A DNA stretch of 62,925 nt, counting the filler, from Reclinomonas americana ATCC 50394 (taxonomy: Eukaryota): assembly GCA_048213135.1 (NCBI GenBank). It is 13 parts of 13 records of this genome, joined end to end, with 100 filler letters (N's around TTAATTAATTAA, not from the genome) between each part and the next. Parts side by side here need not be neighbours in the genome. Positions count along the whole stretch, not along the records: positions 2,182 to 9,045 come from AFZH01020841.1; positions 9,146 to 11,862 come from AFZH01020842.1; positions 11,963 to 15,898 come from AFZH01020843.1; positions 15,999 to 22,489 come from AFZH01020844.1; positions 22,590 to 25,506 come from AFZH01020845.1; positions 25,607 to 28,889 come from AFZH01020846.1; positions 28,990 to 31,957 come from AFZH01020847.1; positions 32,058 to 39,584 come from AFZH01020848.1; 5 more parts are not named here. One strand, given 5' to 3'. Under the pieces are notes generated by a model that saw nothing but the letters and a program-made list of their open reading frames with translations, was not told the DNA's origin and made no database searches. Below, piece after piece: positions 2,182 through 62,925 of the stretch (position 1 is its first letter; each line of letters starts with the position of its first letter). The position numbers were made by a program, and so were the translations under genes.

Positions 2182-4500
2182 AGCTATTTCAGCACAGCGT
2201 GGCGGATGAAGATTCGTGGTCGGTGAGCGACGCATACCTTGCGACATGCCCAGTGCACGAGGACCTTGTCCGGTGGCACGTCCATGTAGTCGCATATCCT
2301 CACCGCCAGCAAGTGCAAGTGTCGGTACACCAGGCGATCGAGCAGCACAGGGAGAGTCAGCGCCTCGAACTGCTTGTAGGTGATGCCGATGCCCACGGAG
2401 CGATGCCGGCAAGCGTTCAACACACGCAAGAACTTGCACATGTCCACAAACTTGTCGAGATCGTAGAAGTCACAAAACGCCTTGCCGTACGACGCCGCCT
2501 GTGTCACGCGATGTATCAGGTGCTGCTAATCCTTCCTCCCCTCCCTTTCTCTCTCGTGCTCACCTTTAGCAAATCCATTTGCACACTGATGTCCAGTTCG
2601 TTGCCGGCGGCCTCAATGCACACATCGACGGCCGGCCCGAGTGACTCTCGAATGTGCTGAATGTGCTTGATGCCGTTGGGACTCCGCTCCTGCTCAGGCA
2701 GCATCGTTGAGAAAACACCCCCTCACACCTTGGCCACGGGAACGCAACATTGAACTCCTTGAAGGCGTCGAACAACAGCGCAGGAGGCGAGACGGAGCCG
2801 ACCTCGAAGATCTCCACCGTTCCCAGCGGCACCTTCTCCAAGAACTCGCACACCGAATTCGAAAAGATGCGCACACCATCAATTTCCGGCACCAGCAGGA
2901 CAGATGAATCGTAGAGGAAGCGCTCGTAGTAGCCGTGCGGCCCCACCATCAGCACCAGCGTGGTGTCGGACTCCATGGCCTCCTGGTCCCAGTACAAACA
3001 CACCGTGTCCTCGCCACACCTGCGGGAAGGAGGACAGGTGAGAACGCACAGCACGCTGTCGCACTGCGGATGCCCACGTGTCGATTCGCCGCTTTGGCTC
3101 ACTCACCACACCATTTGCGTCGGCGGCACATCACCCTTGGTGTCGAACTCGGTGACAATCTTGGCAAAGTCGGCACCCGTCACCTTGATGACGCCATTGT
3201 TGCAAAAGAGCGCCACGTATCTCCCACTCGGCGACACACTCATGGCCAGGAACGGACCGCCACCCAGACCCTGCGGGTGGTGCGCGTGTTGGCCAAGCAC
3301 CGTTTGTTATCGTCTCTTCCCACCAACACCCTCACCTGATCTTCCGTGCGATCAATGTCAATCATGACAACAGAGCCGCCAATCGGTTCGCCCGTCTCAC
3401 TGAAGATGGCCTTGGGCGCGACGAGCACCTCCGGTCCACCGCTCAGCGTGTACGCCGGCGAGATGACGGCCATGCAGTGCGGTCGAGCCATGAGCACTGC
3501 GGGGTGGAGCGCGAATGAGAATGACTGCATAGATATAAACAATGACACCGCCGTGTCGCAACTGGGATCCGGCAGCGAGAGCACACGATGCTCCGAGTAG
3601 TTGGTGACGGCGTAGAACTTGAGACTGTCGGTCATCATCACGAGACCCGACGGCCAGAACTTGCAGTCCACCACGCGATCATCTTCACCCTGCACATGCC
3701 ACATTGCCTCTCCGCAGTGAGTGCAATCGACACCATTACCGGGAGGCTGCAACTGCTGCACGCACCAGAGTCACCGACACCGTGTGCAACAACTCGCCGT
3801 GCAAGTTGTACAGAATGCACGAGCCGTCCCTGACGAGAGACCACCAGCACGATCAGTGCCCGTCCGAGAACGGCGACAGAGAAAAAAGGGAACGCAACTC
3901 GAGCACCACCACCGCATTCTCCTCATCTGACCACCCAATGTCCACAATGCCACGCTTCTCCCACTGTGCGCGTGGCGATGAGAGCGCGGAACGGTGACAC
4001 GAGATGAAGGACAAAGAAAAACGCAACAGGGATCTCGGCAAGCCGCTCGCCAGACGACGTAAAGATGCGGAGCTTGGGGCTCATATCCACACCACCCGTG
4101 ACAAACTTGCGCGGGTGCCGAATGAGCGCTGCATCCACGCGTCAGCGATTGCGCGTGTGAGTGAGAGAGAGAGAGGGAGTGAAAACGCAACCAAGAGGAC
4201 CACCAAACTGCGCCGCCGCAGCCATAAACATGGACAGGTCGAGACCGAGAGTCTCGAAGGGCAAATCATACATCTCTTGCTTGCTGCAAACGCGCACACA
4301 CGCATGCATTCAGTCCCCTGCATCTCACTCACTCGCTCGCTCTCTCTTGTCTCACCGATAGTACACAAAGTTGGACTCCGTGCCCAGACTGCACGTGTGT
4401 GTGTCAGTGTGTGCTATGTTAGCATCCTCATTCACGAAAATATCACACACACATGCACACAGAGTGCGTACCGGAACCAATTGTCGGAACCAAGTGGCAT
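2182..4500 (-). CDS. VPS16: Vacuolar protein sorting 16 (HOPS/CORVET core subunit), multi-exon; C-terminal part lost in the gap at 2082-2181
   Basis: Spliced translation gives MPLGSDNWFRKQEMYDL..AQFGGPLALIR..LRIFTSSG, PEIDGVRIFSNSVCEFLEKVP, AVDVCIEAAGNELD..LLKAASYGKAF, LRVLNACR..VGIGITYKQFEAL..HLHLLAVRICDY..VLVHWACRK. These are hallmark Vps16 segments. The start codon is tentative. Confidence 0.93.
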
Positions 4501-4804
4501 GTTTGCGGCTTGCACGCACTCACTCACACACACCTGATGGAGACGGGGAGGAGAGAGAGAGAGGGTGTGTGAGAGAGAGTTGATGGTGCGGATCGACATG
4601 CCGCCCCCGCCAGAAGCCACACAGAAGCATGCAAGCACAGACACACATGCACAGAGACGCACACGCAGAGGGCGAAGATCACTCACCACCAAGCAAGCCA
4701 GTCAGACGCGATGGATGCGACAGGACGATCGGTGGGCGGGACGTATGGTTTCGTTGACGGAGACTGTTTTTTTCATTCATACACACATTCCGCAGCCGAG
4801 CTGC

Positions 4805-6883
4805 TCAGAAGCCCACATCGCCATCGTCCTCGTCGTCATCAATTTCCTCCTCCGACTCGTCGCCCTCGTCGTCGAGGCCATAAAGATCTTCCGAATCGCC
4901 GCCGCCGGCAATCTCGACTTCGCCGTCGCTCGAGTCCATGTCGCTGACATCGTCCGACTCGTCGCTGCTGCCGCCAAACATGTTGCCTTGCATGTTGGCA
5001 TGTGCTGTGTCGGCACAGACAAGGGTTCAGAACACTCGCTGCACCCTCTGCTTCTGCTGCTTCTCTTGTCAACAAAACCAACCTCTTGAGCGTCGTGACG
5101 ACGCGGCGCCTGGTCGCTTCATGGCGCGTGACTTGCTTCTCTTGCCACCGCCGGCACCGCCCGATGCATCCATGCCTGCGTTACCGCCGCCGCCGCCACC
5201 GCCACCGGCACCGCCCCGGCCTGGCGCACCACCACCACCAGCTGCGCCCCGACCAGGCACGCCGCTAACGCCCTGCCCTTGCCGGTAGTCGCCTGCGCTG
5301 CCGCCACCACCGTGAGCATTGTTGAGACCGCCACCACCGCCACCGGCACCACCCGCAGCACGCCTTGACACGGCATCTGTGTGCGACAAGAAAAAGTTGG
5401 CACTTCTTCTCGGAAGAGAGAAAATGCAGTGAAGCGAGAAAAACGCAACGCATGGCCTCGTCCAACTCGTCCTCGCCCAGCGTGTCACCCTCCAGCAGCT
5501 TGCGTTCTTGCTCGCGCAGTCGCGTCTGAGAAGAGACGCGCGCACGTTCAGCTCCGGTGGGGTTCTGACTCTACTTAAATGCTCATTCCCTGACCTTCAA
5601 ATCCTCCAGCTTCTTCTTGCCCTTTTCCAACCGCGCCGCCTCCTCTGTATCGTACTTTTGCTTCTCGTTCTCCAAGTACTGCAGCGTGCGGAACTTGTCG
5701 GCGTAGAACGCAAAGAGACCCTTGAGCTCGCGCTCCAGCTTCTCGTACTCGTCCATGAACCCGGGCCGGATGTTCTGGTACGACTTGAGGCGCTTCTTGC
5801 CGCGCTCCAGCTCACCACGTTTCCGCTCAATCTTCTGCTCCAAGTTGCGCGAGTCCGACGTCATGTTCTCGATGCGCGCCCGCAGGTTTCGCATCTCCTC
5901 CTGCGCGTTCTCAATGTCCCTGCGATGCACGAAGTGAGGCCTTCTCACTCGACAACACCCCGCGTGGTGCAAGCAAGTCGACGAAACTCGCGAATAAACG
6001 CCTCCACCTCGTCAAACTCAATCGTACGCGAGCTGGCCTTGTGGCGCTCCTCCTGTTACACACGCCCCATGTGAGACACTCGAAATCGGACACCACCGCA
6101 ATCATGGCGCGCGCGCAAAATAATGACAACTCACCCGCAGCTCGACCTCGCGCTCCAGATGCTTCGACAGGTCGGCGCCGCGCTTGGTGAGCTCCGTGGC
6201 CAACGTGCGCGTCTGCTTCGTGTCCACCACCCCGCGTTCCATCTCTTGCGGAGTCACATCCTGCTCTCGCGACACATGAGAGATTGAAGAGCGTGTGTGT
6301 GTGAGAGAGAGACCACGCACCGGCTGATCCTTGGACTCCATGGCGCGCTTCAGCAGCGACGAGATCTTCAACAGCTCCTTCACTGCGTATCCATCCGAGC
6401 CATACAGCTTCTTTGTGTTGAGCTTGATGTGTGCCTTGGTCAGCTGCGCTCAACCAGCGTGTCAGAAGACGCAAAGAGCAAGAGTGTGTGTGTGAGAGAG
6501 CAAGACTGACCATCACATGCGCCACGTTGCGCACAAACGCAATACGCTCCTCCTCGTCCTCAATGTCAACCGGCACATCCAACGACGGATCGTACCTAAT
6601 GACAAACAAACAAACACCACAACTTTAAAATGAGCGCCAAAGTGGCCTCTCAGAGAGTGACAGAGAGCAAACACAACTTGTGCACAAGCCACGAGGCAAT
6701 CTCAGCCATCATGCGAAAGTTCGCCGAGCGAAAGCTCTCCATCGACACCGACCGCGGGTACCCCAACGCTCGCAAGTTCTCCACAAAGTCTGACACGTAT
6801 ACACGCACACAAGATGAGCACATAACATAACACACACAGAGACAGAGAGGAGCGCCGCAACTTCTTAGCTCTCGAAATGACAT
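4805..6883 (-). CDS. CLUAP1: Clusterin-associated protein 1 / IFT38 (IFT-B subunit), about 9 exons
   Basis: Spliced translation gives [93 protein letters not shown]. It ends in a Gly-rich then acidic tail (..DDGDVGF*) at 4805. Confidence 0.95.
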
Positions 6884-7098: not shown

Positions 7099-10000
7099 AT
7101 GGCCATGGCACGCACAAGCAGCCTCGCTCTTCTCTCTCTTTTCCTCCTTCTCGTTGTTGTTGTTGCGGTGACAGTGGCCGGTGACACAGTGCAGCAATGC
7201 GCATCCTCGTCGTCGGTGACTGTGAGCACGCTGCCGACACCGCCGGCATTTGTGCTTCCGCTTAGCAGTGACTTTGATGGCGCCGGGTTGTTTGCGACAA
7301 GAGCTGTCGAGGAGCATGACCGGCGTGTGTCGATCAGAATCACCGCGCTGGTCACTCCGCATCATGTGTGCGCGGCGAGCGGCAGTGTGTTTGTGGCCGA
7401 CACCACAGTTGCGTGGCGAGAGTGTGAGACTTTATGGGATGCGCGCATTCGTTCGGAGCGCGTGCGCGTGTGCGTGTGCGTGGGACGTCGGGAAATGTCT
7501 GCCACTTGACACGCACGCCCACGCGCTCTCTCTCGTGCGTGTTGTTGTCTGTGTGTCTCTGCGCGCGTGTGTGTGTGTGTGTGTCTTTTGTGTGTGTGTG
7601 TGCGGTTCGTGTCCAACTTTGGCTTAGTCAAACTAGGCAATTCCCGTGTTTTCCACCTTGTGCTTGCGTTGTTTTTCGCCGGCATGCATTTTCCCTCATG
7701 TTGTTGGTGTGTGTGTTGTGCAGACGCGGGCGATCCACTTGTACACGTCGGGTACGTGAGAAAAGTGTGTTTGTCTAGTTTTGCGTGCCCCTTGCATATT
7801 GACGCGGATTCTCTCCAGGGTCATTTGTGGCCACGCATGTCAGTCCGGTGCCCGTCTCGTGTGTGTCTACGCACCCGGCGGTGTTCCCGGCTCCATCGAC
7901 TCCGCGTGTGTTCTTTGGGTCGTCGACGACTGTGCGCGTGTGGAATTCGACGAGTTGCGGCCCACTCCCATGCATTGCTGCTTCTCGCACTGCGCTGTTT
8001 TTTCATTTTCTCATTTTTTTGTGTGTCTCCACAGTGACTACGTCAACAGTGTTTGCCGGTGTTGCGGGCAAAGCTGGTTTGGTGGATGGACCGTGCGCCT
8101 CGGCTACTTTCTCACAGTTGCGGCCGGCTCCTCTTGCTGAAATGCCATTTGTCATTGGTGGTCACGTTTGTTCGTCTGCGTGTGTGTGCGTGTGTGCAGA
8201 GTGGTCGGCCTCGCCCATCACCCCAGTGGACAACACCTCTACATTGCCGACAATTACCAGTCGAGCCACATTGTGTTCCGTCGCATCACCTATGCCACGG
8301 GTGCGCGCGCGACTTTTTTATCTCTCCCCTTGCTATTTTATTTGCTTACTTTTTGTGTGTGCCGACATTCTCAGGCCTCGTGACCACTCTGTTCCACTCG
8401 TCGATCAAGTACAATGGCTCCAACTTTGGCTTCTCGGTGGATACCGACGGCTCACTGCTGTGCCCGGATACTCTTGGGCGCCAGGTGATTCGCTACAGTC
8501 CGTCTGGTGAGTCGCCTCTTGCTTCGTCTCCTTGTCTCCGGAAGAAATCGCTCATCCACTCTCTTTCTCCCCCTTCTCTTCCCCTTCTCTTCCCCTTCTC
8601 CCCCCTTCCCCCTTCCCCACACAGGTCAACCTTCTGTCGTCTTCGGCACGGGCGGGTGCTGCAGTCGCGATGGTGGCCACCCGCAGTCCACGTACGATGC
8701 ACCGGTGCACATCCACATGGTGTCCTCGACGCACGCGTGTGTGAGCGAGCCGACGCAGCACCGCGTCCGTATTGTGAACCTGCAAGACGGCTCGGTGTGC
8801 ACGGTGGCCGGCACTGGCGCGCCCGGCACCGTTGACGGGCCCGCTTCGACGGCACAATTCAATCAGCCGGCGGGCATGGCCTACGACTCCTCCACCGGTC
8901 ACTTTTATGTGGGCCAGCAGGGCTGCGTGCGTCACATTGGCAACTTTGTGCCGCCACCGGCGCCGATTGTGGCCAACATTGACCCGCCGGCCTTTGTCAC
9001 CGGCGTCTCCGGTCGCATTCCCATCTGGCTCAATGGCTCCAACTTNNNNNNNNNNNNNNNNNNNNNNNNNNNNNNNNNNNNNNNNNNNNTTAATTAATTA
9101 ANNNNNNNNNNNNNNNNNNNNNNNNNNNNNNNNNNNNNNNNNNNNCCCCAGCCATTCACTTCCTTTCCCGCCCCCCTCACTCTCTTTTATTTAATTCTCC
9201 CTGTCAACAGTGCGCGTGGTCTCTATCAGCCCTGCCCTGCTGGTGCTGTCGGGAGGTGTGCAGACTGTGGTGGTCAGTGGTCGCGGTTTCCTGGCTCCGT
9301 CGGCCACCTTTGTGGTCTCGACGGCGGCTTGCACCGTCGGCGTGCCGGCGGCTGTCAGCGGCGTGCAGGTGACGGTGACGTCGCGTGTCGACACGGCCGC
9401 TACCCTGCAGTTCACGCTGGCAACGTCGGTGCTGCCGGCCGCCAACTACAGGCTGTGCATGCTGCCGTCGCCGGGCGCCGCCTACGTGGCCGTCACCAAT
9501 GCTCTGCAGATTGTCGGCGTCAGCAGCCTCGTGCCGGCCGTTGTGACCTCGTATGTCGGATCCACATTTATCACCATCAACGGCAATGGCCTGCTGGCAC
9601 CGATTGGCGGCGTCATTGCCACGTCGTGCGGTGCTAGTGTGGTGGCCGTGGCAAACATTTCGTGCTCCACCTTCACTGCCGTCAACTCGTCGTCGGTCCG
9701 CGTCACAGTTGTCAAGTCGTCGGGCCTGGTGGTCGGCGCACGTCGTCTGTGCCTCCGCTGGGTGGCCGGCGGCCCGTACATTGATGCCGGCTTGCTGCAG
9801 ATTGGTGAGTGTTGACAGTCAATAGGAACATTCACGTCTTTTCTTCTCCCCTCACACCATGTTTGTGCAGCCGCCGTCACTCAGGTTGTGCCTGCCGCTA
9901 TTCCAGTCCAGTCCACTGCTGTCGTGACCGTGCTCGGTGCGTCGTCACTGTTATCCCTTCCCCCCCCCCCCCCGTCTTCTTCAGTAGATGCTCACCCCGT

Positions 10001-13000: not shown

Positions 13001-16000
13001 GGCAGTGGTCGTCGTGTCGGCAGTGACGCCGTCGGCCATTCCGCGTGCGGCTTCGCAGACCGTGTCGGTGGTGGCCAGTGGGCTGCCGTCGAATGCAACC
13101 TTCTCCGTGTCCACGGACTGCGCCAACCCGAGTCCGTCGTCGACCGGCGTTACCCTTTCCGTGAGCTCGCAGTCGGCAATTGGCGCCTCGCTGGTGGCCG
13201 ACGCATCGTCGTCACCCGGTGGCCTCTTTGTGCTGTGCGTGCGCTTTGGCACTTCGTCGTCGTCGGCCTTCCGTGCTGGCTCGCTGGCCGTGGCCTACCC
13301 GCAGAGCCTCTCGCCGACGATTATCAATGCGCCGACTGGCGTCACGTTGAGTGGCACTGGCTTCGTGCCCGGCGCCACATTCATTCTGTCGACTAGCTGC
13401 TCGCCAGCCGCGCCGCCGGTGACTGGCTCATCAATTGTGGCCACGTACGGAAGTGCGTCGACGTACTCGCTCGACGTCAACTTCCCGGCGACGATTCAGC
13501 AGCAGGCGTATCAGATTTGCGTCAAGTGGTCAACGGGCGGCGCTTCGTCGTTCGCCGGCACTCTGACCATTGTCTCCAACGACTGTGCGGTCAACTACCT
13601 GCTTTCCACCATGCCGCCGTGGACGTACCAGTTTGTGGCGCCGTGGGGATCGGCGGCTTCGTTTAGCATTGCCAATGGTACCTATCTGCAGGCGTCGGCC
13701 TCGCAGCAGGGCGACACCGACCGCGTGCTGGTGGTGTCGGTCACCCCGTACTCGACGTACACACTGTCGATCAAGATGCAGGCTCCGGCCTACACCGCCA
13801 ATAATTGGTGGCAGGAGACGGCGTTCCGCGCTGGCCGTCACGACGGCTCCGACTTTGACTCGAATTCGGCGGCGTGGACATTTGTCAACAAGTTCTCTCG
13901 TGATGACGGCTATCTCAACGGCAACGGCAACCAGTGGGTCCTCTACCAGGCCTCGTTGCAGATTGGTGCCGACACGGAGCTGTCGATCGGTTTCAAGCTC
14001 GGCTCCCTCGGCGGCGCAGCGCCCACTGTTGGCTGGCAGCTCCTGTCGCTGTGCCAGACGTGCGCAGGTGTGTTTCCACCCCCCTTTTTCTTAGTTCTTT
14101 TTTTAATTCTTGTACTCACTGCGTCTGTTATCTGTAGGTTCTCTGGTGATGCCGCTGAACACGATGCCGACGTGGAGCTCGACCGAGGTGGCATCGTGGG
14201 GGTCGGCTGCTACGTGGGCCATCACCAACAACAATCAGTTGCAGGCGTCGCTGTCGCAAGAGGGCTCCAATGCACGAGTGGTGGTGGTGCCTGTCGAGGC
14301 CAATGCACGCTACACACTGTCCGTGCGCATGCGCTGCCCGACGTACACCGGCAGCAACCAGTACTGGCACGAGTTTGCGTTCAAGAACGGCAGCAACACG
14401 GCGGTCGATTACGACCAGAACGTGGTGACGTGGACTTTTGTGCAAAAGTTCTCCAACCGCGACAACTTCCCGAACGGCAACGGCGACGTGTTCACCACGT
14501 ACACGTTTGTGGTCAACACTGATGCGTCCGGTCTGCTCAGTCTCGGCTGGAAGCTGGGTGCCCTCGGCGGCCCAGCGCCGACTGTGGCGTGGCAGAGTGT
14601 GGAGTTGACGTGCCAGTCGGTGATCCGCTCGTTTACGCCGTCGGTGGTGCCTGCTGGCGTGGCGGGCGCAACGTTGGTGGCCTCGGGCTCCGAGCTTGTC
14701 GACGTCTCCGCCGACGCCAGCGCCTTTATTCTGGCTGCCACCTCGTGCTCATCGCCGTCGTCACTGGCGCCCACTGTGGTGCCGGGCTCGTCGGTGTCCA
14801 GCACTCTGAACAGCGCCACCCAGATGACGTTGCGAGTGACCACATCTGCCACGTACGGTGGCACTCCGCGCATGTGCGTTCGGTGGTCGCCGACGTCGGG
14901 CTACACCGACATTGACCAGCTGAATGTGGCTCTGGTGTCGAGCATTTCGTCGCCGTCGCTGACCACGGGTCACACGGAGACGATTGCGCTGCAGGGTGCC
15001 GGCTTGGTGTCACCGGCCTCGGTGACGATTAGCTCGACTGCCTGCTCGGCGCCGACTGCGGTGACCGGCGTGCAAGTCACCTCGACGGCATTTGTGTCGT
15101 CGTCGCAAATCAATGTGACGGTGCGCACCGACAGCTCGGCCGCCACTGGTGGGCCGTACTTTGTGTGCGCTCGCTGGAACGCAGCCTACGCCAACACCAG
15201 CGTCGGCTCGATCTCGGTGGCCTCGGTGACCTCGATTGCGCCCAACGTGTTTGTGGCTGGCGCGTCGGTCGCTGCTGTGGTCACGGGCGCCAACATGCCG
15301 GTTCTGTCGGCGAGCACTCAGGCGGCCGCGGCACTCGCGCTGTCGTGCAGCACGCCGCTGCCCGCCGGTGCGATTGTGCTGTCTGTGTCGTCTTCCTCCA
15401 GCACCTCGTTCAGCGTCAGTGGCGCGCTGCCGGCCACTCTGGCCGGCTCCTCCGCCTACCAGCTGTGCGTGCGCTGGTCCAGCAGTGCCAACTATGTCAA
15501 CGCGCTTGGCTCCATCTCGGTTGTCAGCATCTCTTCAGTGACACCGCGCGCTGTGTCGGCCACGGCCGCATCGCCGGTGACTGTGTCCGGTAGCAACCTG
15601 GTGTCTGCCGCTGGAGCCGATTTCGCGGTCGCAGCCTCGTGTGCCTCGCCGTCGGCGAGTGTGGCACAGTCGATCGCCGTGGACACGTCCAAGTTGCCGA
15701 CGACCCTTCTGCTCTCTGTCTCGATTGCCTCGACTGCAACTCCGGCCAGCAACTACCATTTGTGCTGGAAGGTGCAGGGTGGCTCGGGCGCCTACACCGA
15801 TCTGGGCGCACTGAGTGTGGTCGGTGCGACGGGTGTGTCCCCGGCCTTGGTGGCGCGCACTGTGCCGCAAGCCGTGGCAGTCAGCGGCGCCGGTTTCGNN
15901 NNNNNNNNNNNNNNNNNNNNNNNNNNNNNNNNNNNNNNNNNNTTAATTAATTAANNNNNNNNNNNNNNNNNNNNNNNNNNNNNNNNNNNNNNNNNNNNCC

Positions 16001-48479: not shown

Positions 48480-51400
48480 ATGGCGACAGAGGCGTCTCCG
48501 CGTCCTCTTCTCTCGCGGTCATCTCCGACGCGCAACATGACGCTGCCGGAGATCACGGCGGCGGTTGTGGCGGCGGTTGCGGCGGCCGGTGGCGAGGAGG
48601 TGACATCATCATCATCAGCAGCAGCGTCGACCGTTGTCGTTGCATCAGCCCGGCGACCTCCACTGCACGATGTCACCTTCAACAGCGCTGTGCCTGCTGC
48701 TCTTCCGCCACCTCCGCCTCCGCCTGTGCGAAGTGCCACGCATCCTGGTCATGGCGGATGGGAGCGACGGAACATGGTGTGTGTGCCTGTCGCTTTTACT
48801 TGCTCTCACTGTGTGTGCTCATTCGCGTGTGTAGGTGTTCATTGAGCAGCTGGCGGAGCGCAACAGAGAGCAGCAGAAGTTGCGTGAGGCAGAGCTTGCC
48901 AAGGAACGAGCGGCTCGGGAGAAGCTTCGCCAACGCATCTTGCTGGAGGTGTGTGTGTCAATCGTTCGCCATCGCTTGTTGCTTGCTGGTGTGCTTAAGA
49001 GAGAGTAGGCGGCGGAGAGGACACAGGCACGGCAGCAGCAGTTGACGAGTACGTATGCGGGAGATGAGTTTGCGGACGATGAGGCGGTGGAGGACGCGGT
49101 CAAGGGGCGCAAGCAGTCGCGTGGTTCGGTTCCGCAGGCGCCCAAGCGCCGGCCGTCGAAGAAGTTCTTGGAGTTGAAGCAGAGGCATCAGGAGATGCTG
49201 CGCGACATGGAGCTGGAGCGCAAGGCGCGCGAGGAGCAGAGGTGATTGCGGATTTCGTGTCCGGAATGCCTGTTTCTTTATATTAACGTGTGATGAGTTG
49301 GGCAGGGCGGAGAAACAGCGGCAGCAGGAGGAGATGCATGCAAAGTTGAAGCGCAAGCTCGGTGTGGCCGAGGTGACGAGCACCAAGGACAGATGGTGAG
49401 TGTCGTTGAGGGTGCGAGAGTAGGTTTCATCTCGTGAGCTGACACAAAACACCGGTGGTCGATTGCAGGTATCAAAACGCTTCAGAGGAAGGCGCGGAAC
49501 CAGCGTCACCGCAGCGTAGTGAGTCACCAGCGGTACAAAAGGCCAAGCCGCGGCCGCCATCGCAGCCGCGCCCTCGCACGCATTCATCGGCGGTCAGTTT
49601 GCAGCCACGATGTCAACGAACGCCGTGTCTCGTTTGTCTCACACCGTACAAACCACAGGACTCGACTCTTGCGCGGCTGCTGGAAGAGCATCCCGAGAGG
49701 CCTCGAGTGCCCTCGCGACAGTCGCCAACCTCACCGTTTCGTCGTCCTCTCATTTCTTCCATCCTGTCTCTCTCACTCACTCTCGTTCTTTCTTTGCCGC
49801 CACAGAAAACAGCTGATTGCACGCGGCAAGCTGGCACGCAGCACGAGTTCACTGGGATTGATGGAGTCGCCGAGTGCGGAGGACACTGAATCCAAGGTCC
49901 ACCTGACGCACACGCAGAGGGGTGTGTAATACGGAACGCAGTCATCCGTGTTTCCCTCAGTCCACTGACAGCTGGTTTCCAGAGCAACTGATCAGCCGCC
50001 TACACATCAACAAGGTCGGTCAGGCATCTGTGTCGGACATTCACAAGTGGAAGTCGCGGCACGGAATTGATTCGGAAGCAAGAGTTGCGACGGCTGCCGC
50101 TGCCGCCACACTGACTCGCGTCACTTTTTGTGCTCACCCGCAACGACGATGGGCGCACAGATCTTTTGCATGACATGCAACTTGCCGGGCTTGCGTAATG
50201 CTCTGTTGGAGCGAGGATGGCACGAGAACCCCGATCCCGAGAGTCTCTTCTTCGACTTCAAGTGGGCCCTCAAAGCCAAGGAGATCCCGTACAAGACGCT
50301 GAACAAGACGCAGATTGTCAACCACTTTGAACGGAACTCGGTCATTGTCTCCAAGATTGGATTGATGAACAACTTGTCGGGCATTCGGTGGTACGCCGAC
50401 GTGGATTTGCGGATATTCTTCCCGCGATGTTTTGAGCTGTCGAAGGAGCAGTTGGACGAGTTTGAATGTTGCGTCCAGTGGTGAAAGGAAGTGCACGAGC
50501 GCAGCTGGTTCTCATCTGTGACTGTAGATGAGTACAAGCTGACGGCTGCCACATCGCTGTTGCGAGTGTTTGTCAAAATGCGACAGCGTGACAAGTTCGA
50601 CCCCGCCGTTGTGCGACTGGCGCTGCAGGCGTGTGAGAATCACGTTTTGCAAACATGGGAGCTGTGTGAAGATGTTGCGTCTCTCTTCCTCCATGGTGTG
50701 GTGCTGCTTGTGCGCTCACCATCTCGCAGCTGTTCGGCTTTGGTGAGTTCCGCGAGCTGACGGCGGAGGAGTGGGAGAAGGTGTGGAAGGTGCCGGCCGA
50801 GTCGTACGCTTCGGTCTGTGCGCAACCGGGACTCTCTGGAGGTGCGTGTAGATGTCTCTGTTTTTTTTTCGTCACTGTGACTCACGAGCATGCGCCATCT
50901 TGTAGAGGAGTTGCAAAGCACGCTGTTGGGACTTTCAGGCGTACCACCTCGAGCCGCAGCAGGCAAGAGTGCGACTCCGAGAGCTGCAGGGTCGGGGTCA
51001 GCGAGCGCCGCGGCAGGCAGCGGTGGAGCGTGGGACGAGCTGGAGATGCGAGCCAACAAGGTGCTGTCGATCCTGCAGGAGCGCAACCCGCAGTATCACA
51101 TTGAGGGCGTGCGCAATGTGTGGATTGTGAAGCCGGGTCGTCTGTCACGTGGACGAGGTGAGTTGCAGGGAGGGATTCTTTTCCACACGGATTGTGCACT
51201 GAACCCCGTGATGATTGTGTCTTCGTGATAGGCATTGCCTGCTTCAACAGCCTCGATCGCATCAAGGAGTACACAAAGGATCGGGAGAAGGATGCATTTG
51301 TGGCACAAAAGTACATTGAGGCGCCGCTGACGATCAACCGGAAAAAGTTCGACATTCGACAGTGGGTGCTGGTGACCGACTGGAACCCGCTGACAGTGTG

Positions 51401-52490
51401 GTTCTTTGATGAGGCGTACCTGCGTTTTTGTGTGCACGACTTCACGCTGGACAATGTCGACGACTGGTGCGTTGCTGTCCTTTTTTCAGGTGGAGTCGAC
51501 GGTGGGAGCTGACTGTAGCGTGCTGGCAGTTTCATCCATCTGGCCAACAACTCGATCCAGAAGGACTCGGAGGATTTCGACGAGACCGAAATCGAAGGCA
51601 ACATGTGGCACACGAACGAGTTCCAGGCCTGGCTTCAGTGCGTACGACACTTCTCTATTGTACATCTTGTGGCAGAGACCTCACTGCTACGCACCTGGCA
51701 GAACTACGTACGGGCGCGATTTGTGGCTGGAGAAGATTCAGCCGGCGATGAAGCGCATTGTGGTGTGGGCGTTGGAGTCGGTGCAGGACATGGTGGAATC
51801 GCGCAAGAACTCGTTTGAGCTGTTTGGCTACGACTTCATGATCGACGATCAGTTTGACAGCTGGCTGATCGAGATCAACTCGTCGCCGGACCTCAGCTTC
51901 AGCACGCACGTCACGCAGGATCTCGTCTCGCGCATGCTGCCCGACATTGTCAAGGTGCTTGTGGATTTGCCCGATTCTGGACTGTACTGCCCCAAGTCGG
52001 GTGGCGTGGAACTCGTTGCGTGTGGTGGTGACATATATATAGAGAGAGACGTACGCGTTATTTCGATGCTAACACGCGTGCGCGCAGGACGTGGAGAACG
52101 CCAAGACATTCGACACTGGTCTGTGGCGCTTGCTGCACCGTGCACCCTACAAGTTCTCGTCCATGCGATCGCAAGTTGCGTGTGTGTGTGTGTGTGTGTG
52201 TGACATACTGCGAGGGAAAAGACTCACTATAATAGATTGGACAGTTCAACGCCTCGCTCGTGTTGACGGGCCAGAAGATGGTGCCGAAGCGGCCGCGTGC
52301 CGGCTCTGGTTCCGGCAGTGGTATCAATCTGCCGATGCTCAACACGGAAGAGTTGGCGATTGTGGGTTCGGCGGCAGGCGCGTCGTCCGAATCATCGTTC
52401 CCCGGTAGCGGCGTTGCCGGTGGCAGTGGAAGTGCAAGTGGCAGCCTCACAGATCGCAGGCACGCCGGCATTCATCTGGTCAGCATATAG
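48480..52490 (+). CDS. TTLL3: Tubulin glycylase of the TTLL3/TTLL8 family, multi-exon with a long low-complexity N-terminus
   Basis: [104 protein letters not shown]. The start position is tentative. Confidence 0.9.
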
Positions 52491-52640: not shown

Positions 52641-53929
52641 TCACAAGTTCGCCGCCGACGACGAGCCATCGATGCCGTTGAAGATCAGAGTGTTGTTGAG
52701 TGGAATCAGTTGGTGCGTCAGCAGCTTGATGACTTCTTGCGAGCCGACTCCGCCCAGGAACGATGCAATGTTGTGCAGCTCGGCATTGCCATACCGCACA
52801 CTGTGGGGGAAAAGGAGAGAGTGAGCAACGAACGATGCATGTGCTTGCTGTGATCGATGGGTGGTGACACGCACATTTCCTGCACGTGCTCATCGAGTGG
52901 CGTCGCTTCGAGACTGCGAGCCGTCATCACGTTGCTGAGGTCGGAGCGTAGTTCCTGCGCATCGCTCTGCACGTGCGTAGTAAGCAGGAGACGCACGCAA
53001 ACGCACTCCATTTCTCTCTTCGGTGGCACACCTCGAGCATCGAGTCGACAACATCGCCCGGGTAGCGACCATTGCGCTTCACAAAGGCATCGACGGCGCG
53101 CAGCACCAGGTACCAGTCGAGCTCGGTCGGCACACCGTAGGATCTCATGGTCATGGCCGAGGCTGCGGAGTGAAAATGAGGATACCACAAGGTGAAAGGA
53201 TGCGCAGAATAAAAAAGGACGCAACAAATCTCCTGCACATGAGCTGCATCGGCCTCGATCTCCTGGTCCAGAGAGCGGTAGTGGAGGGCCTGAATGTAGA
53301 TGACATGCTTGCAAAAGTACTCCGTGTCCCAGCTGGAGATCTCGCCGACATCGCGGCTGAGACTCACCAGGAGTTCCTCGACACGCGCACGCACAGCAGC
53401 CAAGTCGCTCGCCGCCTTTTCCTGATAGCTGTACGAAACGAGTCAATGCAAGATGGATTGTGCGCGCGTCTAATCACGGTCGCCACGACGAAACATGCGC
53501 TGCGTGGCCAGGTACGCTTCGGTGCTGGCCTCCATGTCGGGAATCTTGCCGAGCAACGGCAGCGCGCCGGCACCCTCGTTCTCAGTGAACTCCTTCACCG
53601 CACGGGCCATGATCCAAAACTTCGGTGTTTCGTGCGTGAGCTCGGCACATCGCTCGTGCGCAAACACCTTGCGAACCTACATCGCATTCCACGCCACTGT
53701 CAAGTCACATGCACTGTCGTCGTCACCATCGTCGAAGAATGTGTGTGCACGAAACATTGGAGGGGATTTCGTACGGCACGTATGCGCGGTACGCGTGCTG
53801 CAACGCCTGGTCCATGTTGGCGGCCAGCGGGTCGCGCAGCTTGAGTGCCTTGACTTGAGCCTTGAAGACGTCCTTTTCCGCCGTTGTGCTGGGCATACGG
53901 CCATCATGCTGCGGTCACGCTATAGAAAT

Positions 53930-55608: not shown

Positions 55609-58274
55609 TTATGCCGGTGAGTGTGGATGCATGGCGCCGCTTGAGTTTTGTGGAGTTGACGGCTCACTTCCGTCGGTTTCAAAGCCGCCGGCACTGTAGG
55701 CCGAGTCGCCGCCGGGTGAGCGCATCACGTCGGCAGCGTGGCGCACAGACTTGGGTGCTGTGGGCGTGCTGGCTGCTGCACTAGCTGCTGCTGCAGCGGC
55801 ACGAGACTGTTTGGGAGGAGCAGAGGAGGGTGAGATGTTGTTGCTTGGTGAAGTCATGAAAGGATTGTTGCAGATTTACCTTGTCGGAGGCCACGGCGGC
55901 TGTGCCGGCACGCTCTGCGGCTACTGCACCGAGCAGAAGCTGCGACGAGTCGTCCAAAATCTCCCGCTCCAAGTGCATCTGCTGCTGACGCGAGTGCTTG
56001 GTGGTGCGAGCCGACGGGTGCACGTCGAGATTGAACTACACACGGATAACGTCAGTCGATCATGGTGGGAATTGGTCGTCTCTGCTCCGCTGCACACGCA
56101 ACTCCCAGCTCCGAGTCGCTCAGTTCCTCGGCCGCGTCCAGCGACTTGCTGACACCCGACAAGTCCAAATTGTACATGCGCATCGACTCGTGCGCGCCCT
56201 TGGGCGACGACAAGACTGTGGGGCGATCGACGGCCGTCACTGCCATGCGCGATCCTGGTCTTGAGTGTGCCATCTCACGCGGCAGCGTCGGCAGCGGTGC
56301 GTGTGAGGCCGGATCGAGCAATCGGGTGTTGACCGACGACTCTGCAGCGGCACTTCGTAAGCAAACAAGACACACACGTTTCTCGCACGCATCACGCACC
56401 ATCTCCTCCGCTCTCCTTGATCGCCTGCAATCGCATCGTTTCCTCTGCTTGTCGATGCAACCGCGCCCGCAAGAGCTCCTGTTGCTCACGCAGATACAGC
56501 TGCTGACGAGCGCGCTCGTTGGCCACCGCCACCTCGCCGTCAAAATCAGGGGACTTTGAGCGATGCGAGTGGCCGCCGCCAGCGGTCGCAGCTGCAGACT
56601 GCGGCCGGTAGGCGCCGACGCGACGAGGGCGTCCTGTGTCGGCAGTGCGACCCGACATGGACGAGGCGGGGCGAGTGCTGGCCGCCGAGGCGCCACCGCC
56701 CGCCTTTTGCACGCGCCGACCCATGGATTGCGAGAGACCGCTGAGTGCCACGTCGACGCTGGCCTGCTGGGCCTCGACGGCACTGGTTGGCCGTCTTGCA
56801 CCCTGCTGCTTCTTCGCCTGCTCGCGCTGCCGCATGACAATGACGCGCTGCTTCGAATCCTGCGGATGACTGCTCTTGCCGCTCGCCGGTCTACGGCTGA
56901 CCAGTCCGTGTCGTTGTATCTGCTGAAGGAACGACGACGATGCTCCGCCAGGTGGTGGCGGCTGCCGTCGCGAACCTCCACCACTGCCGCCACCATAGAT
57001 GCGCATGAGCATCGCAATGTCGGCATCCTCCTCGTCAGAGTCTTCCCACACGGCGCTGTCGTGTGCGCCACGGCCCGCCGCTCCATGCGGCGATTTCGAG
57101 CGCTCCAGCGGCGCCTGCGCGAGGATACCGTCGGCCGAGGGCACGCCGGTGGCATCGCCAGGCATCAGCTGCTTGATAACTTGCATGAATGACTCGTGAT
57201 CCAGGCGGCTGTGTGGTCGATTTCGTAGTGCGGCTGCCGCATCGCCAGCGCCGCCCGCCTCGTCAAAGCCGTCTGCGGCACCGGGAGGCAGCTCTCGAGG
57301 ACCTAGAATTTTGCGCAAGCTATGAGCACAGGGCGAGATATAAAGGAAGAGAGTAAGAGAAAGTTACGCAACTGGGATACTCGTCAGAGTGCATGGCCGC
57401 GTCAAGATCCTCTGGCGCCGGCTCCGTGGCATGCCGTGAACTGTGGCCGGGTTCTGATGGCTCGGGAGCACCAGGTCGCGCCGGCACCGGCGACTCGCGA
57501 CCAGTCGGGCTCGTGTCGCGATTGCCGTGTGCGTACGAGTGCAAGGCATTCATCAGCAGACTGCCGCCGGGCACACTCGCGTCTCGCTCTGCCTTCAGCT
57601 CGCTCATGGTCTGCGCACGCGACAAATCAGCACAAGGCGCATAATAATCAAGTGTGCCCACTGCAAACCAACCTTGCGCTCGCCCTCGGTGGCCCGCCAC
57701 GATCGCCCCCCTTGTGGTGCTTGTGGCGGATGCGGTCCGCCTTCCACCTCCACTCCAGACACAGACTCGCTGTTCTTCGTGGAACCATCTGTCGCGTACC
57801 TGCCCTTGCGCTTCGAGCCGCCACCACCAGATGACTGCGGCCGGCGCGGAGGCGACGCCTGAATCGTCTCCACGTGTCCATTGGTCAGCAGCTGTTGCGG
57901 CTGTGCGTACGCACTGTGTGGTCGAGTCTGCTTGGTGACGCGGCGTCGCGGTGGACTGGTGAGCGGTGGCGAGTACAGGCCCGACGCCAGACTGCTGGCC
58001 ACGGTGAATCGCGTGTCCCACTGTGGTCGCTTCTCCTGCGGCTGCATGCTGGCGCCTCCCGCGCGACTGGCGGGTCGCGAGGGCGGATTGCTGGTCGACT
58101 TGGAGGCGCCGGTGCGTGCCGATGCAGGTCGCTGCGATCCCGCCGCCGCCTGGGTGTCGTCATGGTTAGCACGAGTGAGGGAGGGAGGGGAAAGAGCACA
58201 AAAAGCTGCCACCAACCTTGCCCTCGTCATCGGCAAGCCCATCTCCGTGCGCATCGTCGTCCACCACCTCCACA
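55609..58274 (-). CDS. Uncharacterised low-complexity protein with a short coiled coil; 5' end in the gap
   Basis: Consecutive minus-strand ORFs (57604-58254, 57320-58021, 56392-57318, 55609-55857) can be linked by GT..AG introns, e.g. donor GTTGCG at 57372 with the next exon reading S-PRELPP. Contains repeated RP-x-S-A motifs and NERARQQLYLREQQELLRARLHRQAEE. No family recognised. Confidence 0.55.
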
Positions 58275-58490: not shown

Positions 58491-58493
<3 letters not shown>

Positions 58494-58717
58494 TTTTTCC
58501 CACACTCAACAGTCACTGACAAACGATGGCCTGTCTGACTTCCTTGGCCGCTTCTTGGCCGCAGCTGCAGCTGCGGCCTGTGCAAAGGCAGTCGTCCAGG
58601 CTGCAGGGTTCACTGATGGGAGTGACATAAAGAGAGAGTGAGATCGAGCAGAAACGCAGTCAATCGATTTTCAGTCAGTGATTGCGTGCGAGAAGTGTGT
58701 GTGTGACTGTGGTGGCC

Positions 58718-61024
58718 ATGGTGAGAACACCAGTGAGCGAGAGAGTGTGTGTGAGAGAAGGAGAGAGAGATGCGCGTGAGAAACAGAGTACATTTGTGAG
58801 ACTGACAGATTGGCAGACAGGAACGCGCATGTGAGACTGACACAGGCAGACAGTGCATGTGCATGTGTGTGTGGGAGAGAGATGCGCATGAGAAACAGAG
58901 TACATTGTGAGACTGATGACGCAGACAGATTGGCTGACACCTTGACTGATTGCTGTGCTTGCAGGATAAGCCCACAGAACACTGCATGTATACACTGGAG
59001 GTGTTAGGCGAGATCGTTGAGGCGCCTTATGTTGCGTCTTTTTTCTTTTTTTGTGGAGATGCGCTTCTGCTGGCTGCTCGCTCAATTGTCGACACAGTTG
59101 CAACCGTGCATGATTGCGTTCTCGGTCATGCTCGTTGTGTTGTACTCGACTGCGGCCACTGGATTCTTGACGTTGCGCGCTGTGTGTGTGAGAGAGAGAG
59201 TCGCCCTCCCGTCATGGGCGTCTCACCTCGTCGCAGATTCGCTCGCCTGCGACCCATGCGACCGCGATCGCCACTGCTCACGGCCATTGGTCTCATGGCC
59301 ATGGCCATCACTGGCGTGTTCTTGCTGGCATTCATCTTTCGTCGGCATTGCGTCATGCTGGTGTTTGTGTTGCCGGGTCCCATTGTGTGGATCGGGTCGC
59401 AGGTCGGTCAGCCTTCGCACAGTCCCTCTGGTTGATATTTGACCCAACTGTTCCCCCCCACAGTTTCTGCGAGCTCTGCGACTGCTGGCACTCTTCCGCA
59501 CCTCGCGGAGGCAGTTCCTGCGCTACCTGCAGGACGCAGACAACTCGGTGGATCCCTCATCGTCGATTGAGAAGCTCACTCCTCGCGTGGTCAATGCACA
59601 ACCGGTTCTTTTCGGACGGACCTCGTTCATTGCCGAGTCGCTCTACGTGCACCTCTCGCTGGGTGTTGTTGTGGCAGCACTCGGCACGATTGCCATTGTT
59701 CTCAGCGTGCGCATCCCGAATCTGTGGAACCCCAACACGGCGTTGACGGACACGGAAGTGTGTGCGTGTTATTTTGCAGCTCACGATACTGTGACGGGCA
59801 CCACTGTCGCATGTTGCGTGCGAGTGTGTTTCTGCTCATTGTCCCGTCCGTGCACACGTTTACGCGGTTTGCGCGCAGATATTATCCTCTCCGCTGTGCT
59901 GTTGCTTACTTGCCGCTGGTTGCGCGACATTACTGATTTGCTGAATGTGCGCTCCGAACTGCTGCTGGTCGGCGCCACCAACTTGCCCGTTGGCACATGT
60001 GCGTCGACGGGAGACTTTTTCTTTCATCAACATGCCTTGCCTGCTGCCTCGTTTCTCACCCGGCTCTCCTTTGCAGTAACCCTCATTGTCTGGATCTACC
60101 ACAAGAACCCACCTGCTTGGGCGTATGTGCTCAGTGCGGCGCTGTTGGTCGCTGTAACCGCCGCCGGCTCCGTGTACATGCTGTACTACACGCTGGCAGA
60201 CTATCGTCTGCGCAGTCGGTGGGACGCCGTGGCGGCGTCCGTGGGCAAACTGGAGGAGCCGCTGGTGGGTGGCCAGCGAAGTGGCTTCTGCTCGGTGTTG
60301 GTCGATCCGGAGGCGCGAACCCTCTTCCGTCGGCATCTGGTGGCGCAGATGGCCGTCGAGGTGTGTGTTGGGAGAGAGAGAGAGAGACTTGTCTTGTTTT
60401 TTTGTTGCGACTCTCATTCGTCCTCGGATCGCAGCACTTGCTGTTCCTCGACAGATTAGACCAGTGGCGAGAGATGCTGCGCCGCGATCGCAACTCGCGT
60501 GCGGCGATTGAGATGCTTGATACGTTGTACGGGCGTCACTTTGTCGACGGCGCCAGTGACGAACTCAATCTGGTGCGAATGCATTCCACTATGTGTCACA
60601 AACCTCTCTCACCCCATTGTCGAGCTACAGCCTGGCCACGTGGTCCGCCAAATCCGGGCCTCGTTCAACAACGCCACCAGCGCGTCACCGAATGCCGACG
60701 TGTTGCAACGAGTGTGCGCCGAAGAGCCACTTCCCGACCTGTCATCATTCACCGGCGAAGACGCGCCTGACGACCTGGCCACCTTCACTAATCGACGATA
60801 CACTGGCAGTGTGTTCTACGCAGCTGCGAAGCAGTGCCTCTTCATCTTGCGGTCAGGTTCGCCACGTCTACCTCAATCAGTACCATTCCCCGCCGGCGTG
60901 CTCATATGCTGTTGTGATTTTCGCAGACTGCTGGGCTCGCTTCCGCACCTCAGCGACGTACGTCAAATACCTCGAACAGGGCAACGAGTTGGTATTACGA
61001 ACCGCCGTTGCGCTGACACTGTAG
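58718..61024 (+). CDS. 7TM-RGS protein, copy 1 (seven TM helices plus a C-terminal regulator of G-protein signalling domain)
   Basis: The spliced model has 7 hydrophobic segments, MRPRSPLL after TM1 and RDITDLLNVRSEL before TM6. RGS domain: VLVDPEARTLFRRHLVAQMAVE|HLLFLDRL..LYGRHFVDGASDELNL|PGHVVRQI..VFYAAAKQCLFILRS|DCWARFRTSATY. Confidence 0.88.
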
Positions 61025-61213
61025 CACGTCTCAACCCACCACCACCACCACCTAAGTCGGCGCTCTTCTGAACGAGGAACGCCATAATGAATTGATTGTT
61101 TTGAAGTCGTACGCACGTCGGTGTCCTCGTCGTTTTCCACGTGCTTGCAGGAGAGAGTGTGCCTGATCGTCCACATCTTGAGTGTGTGAAGGAATCCAGT
61201 GTGTGTGATCGCC

Positions 61214-61251
61214 ATGGTGAGGGTTCCGATACGCATTTGTGATCAAAACGA

Positions 61252-61287
<36 letters not shown>

Positions 61288-61303
61288 TGACGTTGTGTGT
61301 GTG

Positions 61304-61338
<35 letters not shown>

Positions 61339-62925
61339 AGAGTCATGTGATGACAGTCAACACTGACTGCATTGTGATGAGGTGCAGGATGTGCCTGGTG
61401 AAGTCTGCCAACTCACCCTGCAGGTGCTGGCTGAGATGGCGGCGACAAACTATGTTGCGACAAGCTCTTCATGCGCAGCTGTCTCTGTGATCGCTCATCC
61501 TGTTGTCGTACGCGCGCCACAGTTGAAGCCATGCATGATCGCATTCGCAGTTGGCCTCGTTGCAGTGTACACAGTGGCTGCCTCCTTATTCCTGAGGTTG
61601 CGAGAGTGTGCGAGAGTGACCTGCTTTCGCCTCGCACTCTCTCATTCGTACACGCTGTGGCCTGCAGGTTTGCGCGCTTGCGAGCTATGCGACCTCGGTC
61701 GCCGCTGCTCACCGCACTAGGCTTCGTGGCCATGGGCGTCACTGGCGTGTTCTCGCTGACATTCATCTTCCGCCCACACTGCGTTTTGCTGGTGTTCTTG
61801 TTGCCCGGTCCCATTGTGTTTCTTGGGTCGCAGGTCGGTCAGCATTCGCACAGTCCTTGTGGTTGATATCCGACCCTTCTGTTTTCGCCGCAGTTTCTGC
61901 GATCTTTGCGACTGCTGGCACTCTTTCGAACCTCGCGCAAACAGTTCTTGCGTTATTTGCAAGACGCGGGTAACGCAGCGGATCCTTCTTCATCCGCTGA
62001 CAAGCTCACTCCGCGAGCGGTCAAGCCGCAGCTCGCTTTGTTCGGACGGTCGTCGTTCATTGCCGAGTCGTTCTACGTGCATCTACTTCTGGGCGTCGTT
62101 GTGGTGGCGCTGGGCACCATTGCCATTGTACTCAGCGTGCGCATCCCGAATCTGTGGGACCCCAGCACAGCGTTGACGGACACGCAAGTGTGCGCGTGTT
62201 ACTCCGCAGCTCACGACACGTTGACGGGCACAACTGTTGCATGTTGCGTGTAATTGTGTGCGTGTTCTCCGCCGCACTCGTGCATGAGTTCACCGTGCTG
62301 CTGTACAGATATTATCCTGTCGTCTGTGCTGTTGCTTACGTGCTACTGGCTGCGAGACATTAACGACCTGCTGAATGTGCGCTCCGAACTGCTGCTGGTC
62401 GGTGCCACCAACTTGCCTTCTGGGATATGTGCGTCGAAGAGATGATCTGCACATGTACCACACGCCGTGTTTGTCTCGCGTCTCACCCGACTCTCATTCG
62501 CAGTAACCCTCATCATCTGGGTCGCTCGAAGCAACCCACCTGCATGGGCGTATGTGCTCAGCATTGCGCTGCTGCTTGCTGTGACGCTTGCCGGCTCCGC
62601 GTACATGCTACATTACACGCTTGCCGACAACCGCCTGCGCAGTCGATGGGACGCCGTGGCGGCGGCCGTGGGCAAGCTGGAGGAGCCGCTTGTCGACGGT
62701 CAACGGAGTGGCTTCTGCTCAGTATTGGTGGACGAAGAGGCACGAGCCCTCTTCCGTCAGCATCTGGTTTCACAGATGGCCGTCGAGGTGCGTGGGAGGA
62801 GGGGAGGGATACTCGTCCTGGTTGTTTTGATGTTCAAATCCCTCCCTCGTTCCGCAGCACTTGCTGTTCCTCGACAGGTTAGATCAGTGGCGAGAGATGC
62901 TGCGCCGCGATCGATCATCGGGTGC
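61214..62925 (+). CDS. 7TM-RGS protein, copy 2 (tandem paralogue), truncated by the window end
   Basis: Exon-by-exon match to copy 1 (RPRSPLLT, LSVRIPNLW, DLLNVRSELLLVGATNLP, LRSRWDAV, LFRQHLVSQMAVE|HLLFLDRL). Intron positions are the same while intron sequences have diverged. Confidence 0.88.

Follow-up and report, generated by a model that had tools for sequence, protein, structure and literature searches.

The 62,925 bases of Reclinomonas americana ATCC 50394 DNA analysed here (the window; eukaryotic, about 58% G+C, gene-dense and with abundant short introns) raise the question of whether introns can regularly begin with GTTGCG. Few features of intron starts are conserved as widely as a purine at +3 and a G at +5. 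A GUUGCGU donor has U at +3 and, in the normal register, no G at +5. The original prediction had placed about 28 donors at GTTGCG, and all 28 positions carry GTTGCG on the strand claimed. To judge from the predicted junctions, GTTGCG(T) is truly used as a 5' splice site, and very commonly so, by ordinary GT-AG introns that are short (about 60-90 nt). The earlier observation was confirmed by our predictions, and its count of GTTGCG donors is, if anything, too low.

We assigned strands to 17 regions of the window from reading frames, Pfam matches and base skew. Introns were predicted by two chain searches. The donor-agnostic search has no donor matrix: it demands GT...AG and otherwise scores nothing but codon content and intron composition; the trained search uses donor and acceptor matrices that were self-trained, starting from the donor-agnostic intron set. 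The codon statistics carry over poorly between genes and discriminate weakly. As a word, GTTGCG is not enriched in the window (73 matches versus a mean of 77 in shuffles); therefore, the signal must be in the placement of its copies. Within the 17 regions, 53 copies lie on the assigned sense strands versus 20 on the antisense strands, and GTTGCGT is found 27 times in sense versus 5 times in antisense. A T follows the hexamer, at +7, in 20 of the 28 listed sites versus 12 of the 45 other copies of GTTGCG.

The donor-agnostic search returned 116 introns, and their top donor hexamer was GTTGCG (n = 18), followed by GTGCGT (n = 10); the background frequency of GTTGCG among GT sites of the sense strands is 53/4941, or 1.07%. 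On the opposite strand, which served as the control for this search, GTTGCG opened none of the 104 pseudo-introns. The trained search returned 132 introns, with GTTGCG (22) ahead of GTGCGT (21), GTGTGT (10), GTGAGT (9) and GTTTCG (4). That is, the other common donors are those named in the original prediction, GTGCG[T], GTGTG and GTGAG. Of the 28 listed sites, 16 were recovered exactly by the donor-agnostic search and 18 by the trained search, with 20 in the union. Further listed sites are backed by homology (6861, 50084 and, weakly, 50674) or by conservation between paralogues (59031, 59813 and 61597). The listed donors at 7408 and 8117 have no independent support. GTTGCG donors beyond the earlier list were predicted at 3562, 38010, 37894 and 56102 on the minus strand and, weakly, at 61007 on the plus strand; all of these except 3562 came from the trained search.

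We also placed junctions by homology, using a protein-to-DNA spliced aligner in which every intron carries the same fixed penalty and GT (or GC) and AG are the only splice signals recognized. The alignments comprised one homologue of CLUAP1 (P0001, 61% identical in the query exon), 12 full-length homologues of VPS16 and 10 homologues of TTLL3/8. We called a junction homology-fixed if it appeared in the one CLUAP1 alignment, in 10 or more of the 12 VPS16 alignments or in 6 or more of the 10 TTLL alignments. The VPS16 homologues came from an exhaustive search; a word-index search with one VPS16 exon gave no matches. The nearest proteins are about 60-65% identical over single exons and come from scattered sources, e.g., Entosiphon for VPS16 and Chloropicon for TTLL. 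In these three genes, GTTGCG is the donor at 7 of the 17 well-constrained, homology-fixed junctions. It also opens approximately 16-17% of the predicted introns, and the claim of a mainstream donor class was therefore upheld.

Two of the genes had been put forward as examples, and both held. The CLUAP1 junction after MSFRELR falls exactly on the GTTGCG at 6861 in the alignment with P0001, and the VPS16 junctions at 4191, 4027, 3898 and 2748 were placed by 10-12 of the 12 homologues. Over the 2748 intron, positions 349 and 350 of the Pfam Vps16_N profile are contiguous. In TTLL3/8, the junction at 50084 (...GIDSEAR/IFCMT...) was without a gap in the three alignments inspected, and that at 50468 was ungapped where present in three inspected. 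The chain searches preferred 50644 over 50674. The same alignments placed other donors: GTGAGT at 3106 and GTGAGC at 2563 in VPS16 (12/12 homologues each), and GTGAGT at 51158 (10/10), GTGCGT at 51467 (8/10) and GTGCGT at 51638 (10/10) in TTLL3/8. The remaining CLUAP1 junctions against P0001 were 6677 (GTTGTG), 6510 (GTCAGT), 6134 (GTGAGT), 5987 (GTTTCG) and 5594 (GTCAGG); besides GTTGCG, CLUAP1 has homology-fixed donors with T or C at +3 at 6677, 5987, 6510 and 5594. In this alignment, one junction, near 6316/6320, could be placed in more than one way, and the C-terminal part cannot be relied on; the donor at 5449, in the poorly conserved C-terminal region, was not used. A search of metagenomes with CLUAP1 gave 80 loci and no close relative (best 59% over short stretches and 52% near full length). 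The Pfam scan of the window covered 300 of the 613 stop-to-stop frames with a low yield, and a scan of 23 single exons fixed no additional junction.

Two paralogous genes for multi-pass membrane proteins stand in tandem on the plus strand (A, 58930-60480; B, 61350-62925) and have the same intron positions. The pair is 86% identical in DNA over the alignment. Three GTTGCG donors had been described as kept between these genes although the intron bodies diverged, and this was found to be so: the donors are identical in both copies, whereas the introns behind them are only 53%, 42% and 58% identical, with gaps, versus 80-85% without gaps in exons 3 to 6. At 59031/61454, TATGTTGCG is identical in both copies and is followed by indels, leaving about 53% identity. 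At 59172/61597, GTTGC is conserved up to an indel, and this intron is the one at 42%. The intron at 59813 is the one at 58%, versus 81-85% in its flanking exons; its partner donor at 62243 was found by both chain searches. In the 51 nt before 59813/62243, six of the nine codon differences between the paralogues are synonymous third-position changes; therefore, this stretch is exonic, and the GTGCGT at 59762, which the search preferred, is not the donor. The label 7TM-RGS family, which had been attached to these genes, was not borne out: three exons gave no credible Pfam family (E <= 0.5), the only match being a sub-threshold one to DUF6044 (E 0.041).

The composition of the donors was assessed in the 131 N-free donors of the trained set, which underlie the motif statistics unless another set is named. 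G is the most frequent base at +3 (50%), followed by T (41%), C (5%) and A (4%). With independent positions, 1.28 GTTGCG donors are expected and 22 were observed (p about 1e-20); in the donor-agnostic set, 1.45 are expected and 18 were observed. This comparison with a position-independent matrix had been set beforehand as a check, and the prediction came through it. T occupies +7 in 18 of the 22 GTTGCG donors; therefore, the unit is the heptamer GTTGCGT. GCGT is the commonest word at +4 to +7 in the 54 donors with T at +3 (18/54), and the 65 donors with G at +3 have GCGT (21/65), GAGT (9) or GTGT (10) at +3 to +6. From the proportions 21:9:10, about eight each of the extra-T forms GTTGAGT and GTTGTGT would be expected among the 54, and we found 0 and 1, respectively. 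GTTGCGT is the co-dominant donor GTGCGT plus a T after the GT, and the GCGT core is common to both classes. The near-absence of extra-T forms of the GAGT and GTGT cores complicates a simple extra-T description, as do the duplex energies with textbook U1 given below.

A G at exon position -1 had been said to be mostly absent from GTTGCG donors. We found it in 4 of the 28 listed sites versus 18 of 25 GTGCG donors. In the trained set, it precedes 3/22 GTTGCG donors versus 41/65 donors with G at +3 (Fisher p 6e-5); the corresponding values are 2/18 versus 19/48 in the donor-agnostic set (p 0.04) and 1/8 versus 6/7 in the homology-fixed set (p 0.01). Exon positions -6 to -1 of the GTTGCG donors show no consensus.

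We compared the remainder of the GTTGCG introns with that of the others. Their median length is 69 nt versus 74 nt, and phase and composition are alike. The motif CT[ACG]A[CT] was found at a distance of 8-50 nt from the 3' end in 18/22 GTTGCG introns versus 40/64 introns with G at +3; CTCAC and CTCAT lead among the branch words of both classes, and C stands at acceptor position -3 in 17/22 versus 50/64. An all-against-all blastn of the 131 introns gave only microsatellite matches of the (GT)n/(CT)n type and the paralogue pair. That is, the GTTGCG introns match the others and are not copies of one another; therefore, they belong to the ordinary introns of the major type, for which they provide a second, rigid word at the 5' end. 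As a test of the U2 type, removal of the seven GTTGCG introns gave an ungapped alignment to the homologues, the modelled introns all being GT...AG by construction. In most predicted introns of the window, the CAG acceptor is preceded at a median distance of 16-22 nt by a strong branch-like word, CTCAC or CTCAT and more rarely CTGAC, CTGAT or CTAAC. GTTGCG or GUUGCG as a splice consensus was not described in any of the full-text literature matches listed (supplements excluded).

How could such a donor be recognized? The explanation that we prefer, and to which we give about an even chance, is that the GTTGCGT class is read in a shifted register by a U1 small nuclear RNA (snRNA) adapted to GUGCGU. 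The GCGU core would be read one position out of register: U1 would pair with U+3 to U+7 of GUUGCGU as it does with U+2 to U+6 of GUGCGU, and G+1 would fill the place normally held by the exon -1 G. U6 would loop out one nucleotide, so that cleavage stays before G+1. The U1 5' end of this lineage would probably fit GUGCGU better than the textbook one, e.g., with a G opposite the C at +4, and a one-position slip would then be stable for the GCGU core only. We suppose that the U1 5' end is adapted because only the GCGU version is used and the binding of textbook U1 would be very weak. Selection for a -1 G is predicted to be absent, and was seen to be absent, because G+1 would replace the -1 G in the shifted register. 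By this sequence feature, the missing -1 G appears to fit a shifted register better than a bulged one. A generic bulged GTG donor also fits poorly because GTTGAGT and GTTGTGT number 0 and 1. A bulged (+2/+3) register should be open to any core that pairs well and should keep -1 G useful, but the extra-T forms of GAGT and GTGT are nearly absent and -1 G is not enriched.

Duplex energies were calculated with the textbook U1 5' end, pseudouridines being treated as U. On the GUUGCGU site at 2748, which has no -1 G, textbook U1 gave +1.1 kcal/mol in the canonical, +1.9 in the shifted and +2.7 in the bulged register. The mean best duplex was -1.2 kcal/mol for GTTGCG, -5.0 for GTGTGT, -5.5 for GTGCGT and -10.7 for GTGAGT. 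The donors that textbook U1 would bind best are rare among the predicted donors (GTAAGT 1/131 and GTGAGT 9/131). For a hypothetical U1 whose position 5 is G, the order became GUGCGU > GUUGCGU > GUGUGU > GUGAGU >> GUUGAGU, which is near the observed counts, and the best duplex with GUUGCGU lacking a -1 G was a 5-bp shifted helix of -4.2 kcal/mol. At gathering thresholds, Rfam found no RNA gene in the whole window, so neither U1 nor U6.

Several points weigh against the reading of GTTGCGT as a shifted-register donor class. Textbook U1 gains nothing from the shifted register over the canonical one, and the hypothetical U1 also predicts a strong GUAUGU, which was seen once among 131 donors. Donors of the types GTTTCGT (4) and GTTGGT (3) do not fit a GCGU core. 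The exon-side statistics come from small samples, the strands of the regions are our own assignments, and the predicted introns are not free of errors: neither chain search found the donors at 6861 and 50084, which are proven by homology. All junctions are predictions from sequence, and both the register and the adapted U1 are inferred. More tentatively, with clearly less than an even chance, the lineage may have remodelled 5' splice-site recognition as a whole, an adapted or second U1 making GUUGCGU the commonest intron start, so that splicing would to a large part run through a noncanonical register.

In mammals, GUUAAGU-type 5' splice sites with a shifted register were reportedly described by Roca and Krainer in 2009 (ref. 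10 and Fig. 1B in PMC4856993), and bulge registers of human 5' splice sites are said to have been described by Roca et al. in 2012. In the available excerpts of PMC4856993, shifted-register sites in mammals are described as rare, and U1 pairing out of register is on record solely as an uncommon exception in mammals; its Table 3 gives the human +2/+3 and +3 bulge registers as 54 and 36 of 201,541 curated sites. Like the mammalian GUUAAGU sites, the GUUGCGU donor has U at +3 and a downstream core that would match U1 one position over, with G+1 in place of the -1 G. Unlike those rare sites, GTTGCG reaches its share of the predicted and homology-fixed introns given above; moreover, its core is GCGU rather than AAGU, the shifted duplex with textbook U1 is unfavourable (+1.9 kcal/mol), and the case is known here from sequence. 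The +2/+3 and +3 bulge sites of humans resemble GTTGCG in having one extra nucleotide after GU, with the remainder pairing as in a normal donor. However, the frequency here is of another order, -1 G is not valued, and the corresponding GAGU and GUGU forms number 0 and 1.

GC-rich algal genomes such as Chlamydomonas have GTGCGT and GTGAGT donors, and the co-dominant donors of the window, GTGCGT, GTGTGT and GTGAGT, are similar. To our knowledge, descriptions of these genomes contain no T at +3 in 41% of donors, no A at +3 in as few as 4% and no GTTGCGT class. According to excerpts of two further sources, the GT-AG consensus GTGTG of Euglena gracilis is complementary over all five positions to the U1 of that species (PMC11170887), and the diplonemid S. 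specki carries a pair of U1 genes with unlike 5' ends (PMC12621601). As in these organisms, the GC-rich donor of the window departs from GTRAGT, and the U1 5' end there fits the consensus or varies. Unlike the donor of the window, however, GTGTG and GTATG keep the normal register, and the excerpts mention no class made of GTT plus a core. A genome in which about a fifth of the introns had such out-of-register donors would lend itself to studying how the cleavage position is set by U1 and U6 when pairing is offset and how snRNA 5' ends and the splice-site consensus evolve together. Gene finders trained on donors of the GTRNGT type would mis-annotate many genes here; even our trained search missed two homology-proven GTTGCG donors.

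Instead of a slipped U1, a dedicated variant U1 or U1-like RNA complementary to GUUGCGU in the normal register, i.e., a separate U1 class, could read these donors. The fully specified heptamer with its strong interdependence of positions (22 observed versus 1.28 expected), the lack of an exon-side consensus and the lack of GAGT or GTGT counterparts all suit such an RNA, as does the diplonemid with alternative U1 genes of different 5' ends in the excerpt of PMC12621601. We consider it rather doubtful: a single U1 with slipped pairing explains the common GCGU core more simply, and the 3' side of the GTTGCG introns is the same as in the others.

It is unlikely that U1 pairing is irrelevant and that the 5' end is set by intron definition together with U6/U5 or a protein. 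This would agree with textbook U1 duplexes of near-zero or positive energy on GUUGCGU, with the short introns, strong branch motif and CAG acceptor, and with the U1-independent or distant-U1 cases mentioned in the excerpts of PMC4856993, but it leaves unexplained both the GCGT core shared with the other dominant donor and the selection of -1 G in GTGCG but not in GTTGCG. Very improbable is an artefact of the gene models in which a neighbouring GT is the true donor. Such in-frame alternatives exist at 32406/32424 and 59172/59184, and 7408 and 8117 are unsupported; however, the donor-agnostic search, the antisense control and the motif-blind alignments (1, 12 and 10 homologues) all favour GTTGCG.

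We give hardly any credence to a separate intron type, either a divergent minor-spliceosome class or introner copies. U12-type introns start with [AG]TATCCTT and have a branch site resembling TCCTTAAC near the 3' end, and the long, rigid 5' motif of the GTTGCG introns without a preference for -1 G recalls them. However, in length, phase, CAG acceptor, branch motif and the spacing of this motif from the 3' end, the GTTGCG introns are like the others. We rejected the U12 type, as the 5' motif is GTTGCGT with no [AG]TATCCTT and the branch words are the CTCAC/CTCAT of other introns, and we rejected introners, as the comparison of the 131 introns showed nothing beyond microsatellites and the paralogue pair. 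A degenerate matrix, in which +3 is free (G or T) and GTTGCG is the product of a loose matrix in GC-rich DNA, is scarcely credible and is refuted for the window by the excess of GTTGCG over independent positions (1.28 or 1.45 predicted, 22 and 18 seen) and by T at +7 in 18/22, despite the G and T percentages at +3 and the GTTGTG, GTTTCG, GTCAGT and GTCAGG donors of CLUAP1.

The individual introns are listed in Table 1.

Table 1. Introns and donor sites with GTTGCG in the window
Gene or site	Donor	Position	Strand	Length (nt)	Support and remarks
VPS16	GTTGCGT	4129-4191	-	63	11/12 homologues
VPS16	GTTGCGT	3964-4027	-	64	12/12 homologues
VPS16	GTTGCGT	3830-3898	-	69	12/12 homologues
VPS16	GTTGCGT	2690-2748	-	59	10/12 homologues
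VPS16, candidate	GTTGCG	3497-3562	-	66	In frame, stop-free; skipped by 6/12 homologues
CLUAP1, intron 1	GTTGCG	6790-6861	-	72	Phase 1; ungapped MSFRELR/N/FVE versus P0001
CLUAP1, C-terminal	GTTGCGT	5377-5449	-	73	Both chain searches
TTLL3/8	GTTGCG	50084-50160	+	77	Phase 0; 6/10 homologues
TTLL3/8	GTTGCGT	50468-50527	+	60	Phase 1; 7/10 homologues; both chain searches
TTLL3/8	GTTGCGT	50674-50756	+		3/10 homologues, variable region; acceptor uncertain (50729 or 50756)
TTLL3/8	GTTGCGT	52015-52087	+	73	Trained chain search only; 0/10 homologues
TTLL3/8	GTTGCGT	52175-52235	+	61	Both chain searches; 1/10 homologues (P0009, ungapped)
Paralogue A	GTTGCGT	59031-59097	+	67	Ends in CACAG; partner donor 61454 in B
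Paralogue A	GTTGCG	59172-59236	+	65	Partner donor 61597 in B
Paralogue A	GTTGCGT	59813-59878	+	66	Partner 62243-62308 in B
Tail of giant plus-strand gene	GTTGCGT	31038-31110	+	73	Both chain searches
Intron	GTTGCGT	32958-33026	+	69	Both chain searches
Intron	GTTGCG	7954-8034	+	81	Both chain searches
Trypsin-like gene	GTTGCGT	41013-41081	-	69	Both chain searches
NAE1/APPBP1-like gene	GTTGCGT	53163-53225	-	63	Both chain searches
Weak candidate	GTTGCGT	57294-57372	-	79	Both chain searches; low scores (D 1.8, A 1.4)
Listed donor	GTTGCG	7408-7413	+		No independent support; both chain searches took GTGAGA at 7424
Listed donor	GTTGCG	8117-8122	+		No independent support; both chain searches read on to 8161

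The VPS16 candidate with its donor at 3562 has the branch-like word TTCTCAT and ends in CGCAG, and the chain search read through it; by these sequence features, it could be a retained or optional intron. The exon upstream of 41081 matches positions 60-111 of the Pfam Trypsin profile. The exons around 53225 align in order to residues 341-406 and 416-439 of the human chain 1r4m_A; the spacing is off by about four residues, and the homology support for this junction is therefore approximate only. In the gene with the intron at 32958, the neighbouring donor at 34045 was found by both searches and that at 33298 by the trained search only. For the donor at 8117, the junction originally proposed suits an NHL-like repeat better than the predicted one, although this is an impression by eye only.

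Runs of (GT)n or (GA)n directly follow several donors (32406/32424, 59172/59184 and 52175) and create in-frame tandem GTs. The donor at 32406, in the same gene as the intron at 32958, was found by the donor-agnostic search only and has an in-frame GTGTGT alternative 18 nt downstream at 32424; at 59172, the GTGTGT alternative lies 12 nt downstream at 59184. In both cases, the alternative may be the true donor. It is possible that such tandem GTs, a few codons apart, are alternative 5' sites.

The window contains 12 pairs of 44-N runs between 2082 and 58374, with 12 bases between the members of a pair (e.g., 2082-2125 and 2138-2181). These pairs break several genes, including the 3' part of VPS16 and a very large plus-strand gene, which extends from 9195 to 31957 and on to about 34700 and has few introns in its repeat body. 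This giant gene contains one open frame of 2196 codons (15947-22534) and shows weak IPT/TIG matches in its tail. The gene model at 6.96-9.04 kb has a weak NHL match and may be the 5' end of the giant gene. On the minus strand, positions 3-2081 encode BNR/Asp-box repeats and teneurin-like EGF domains by Pfam, and the part seen is nearly intron-free.

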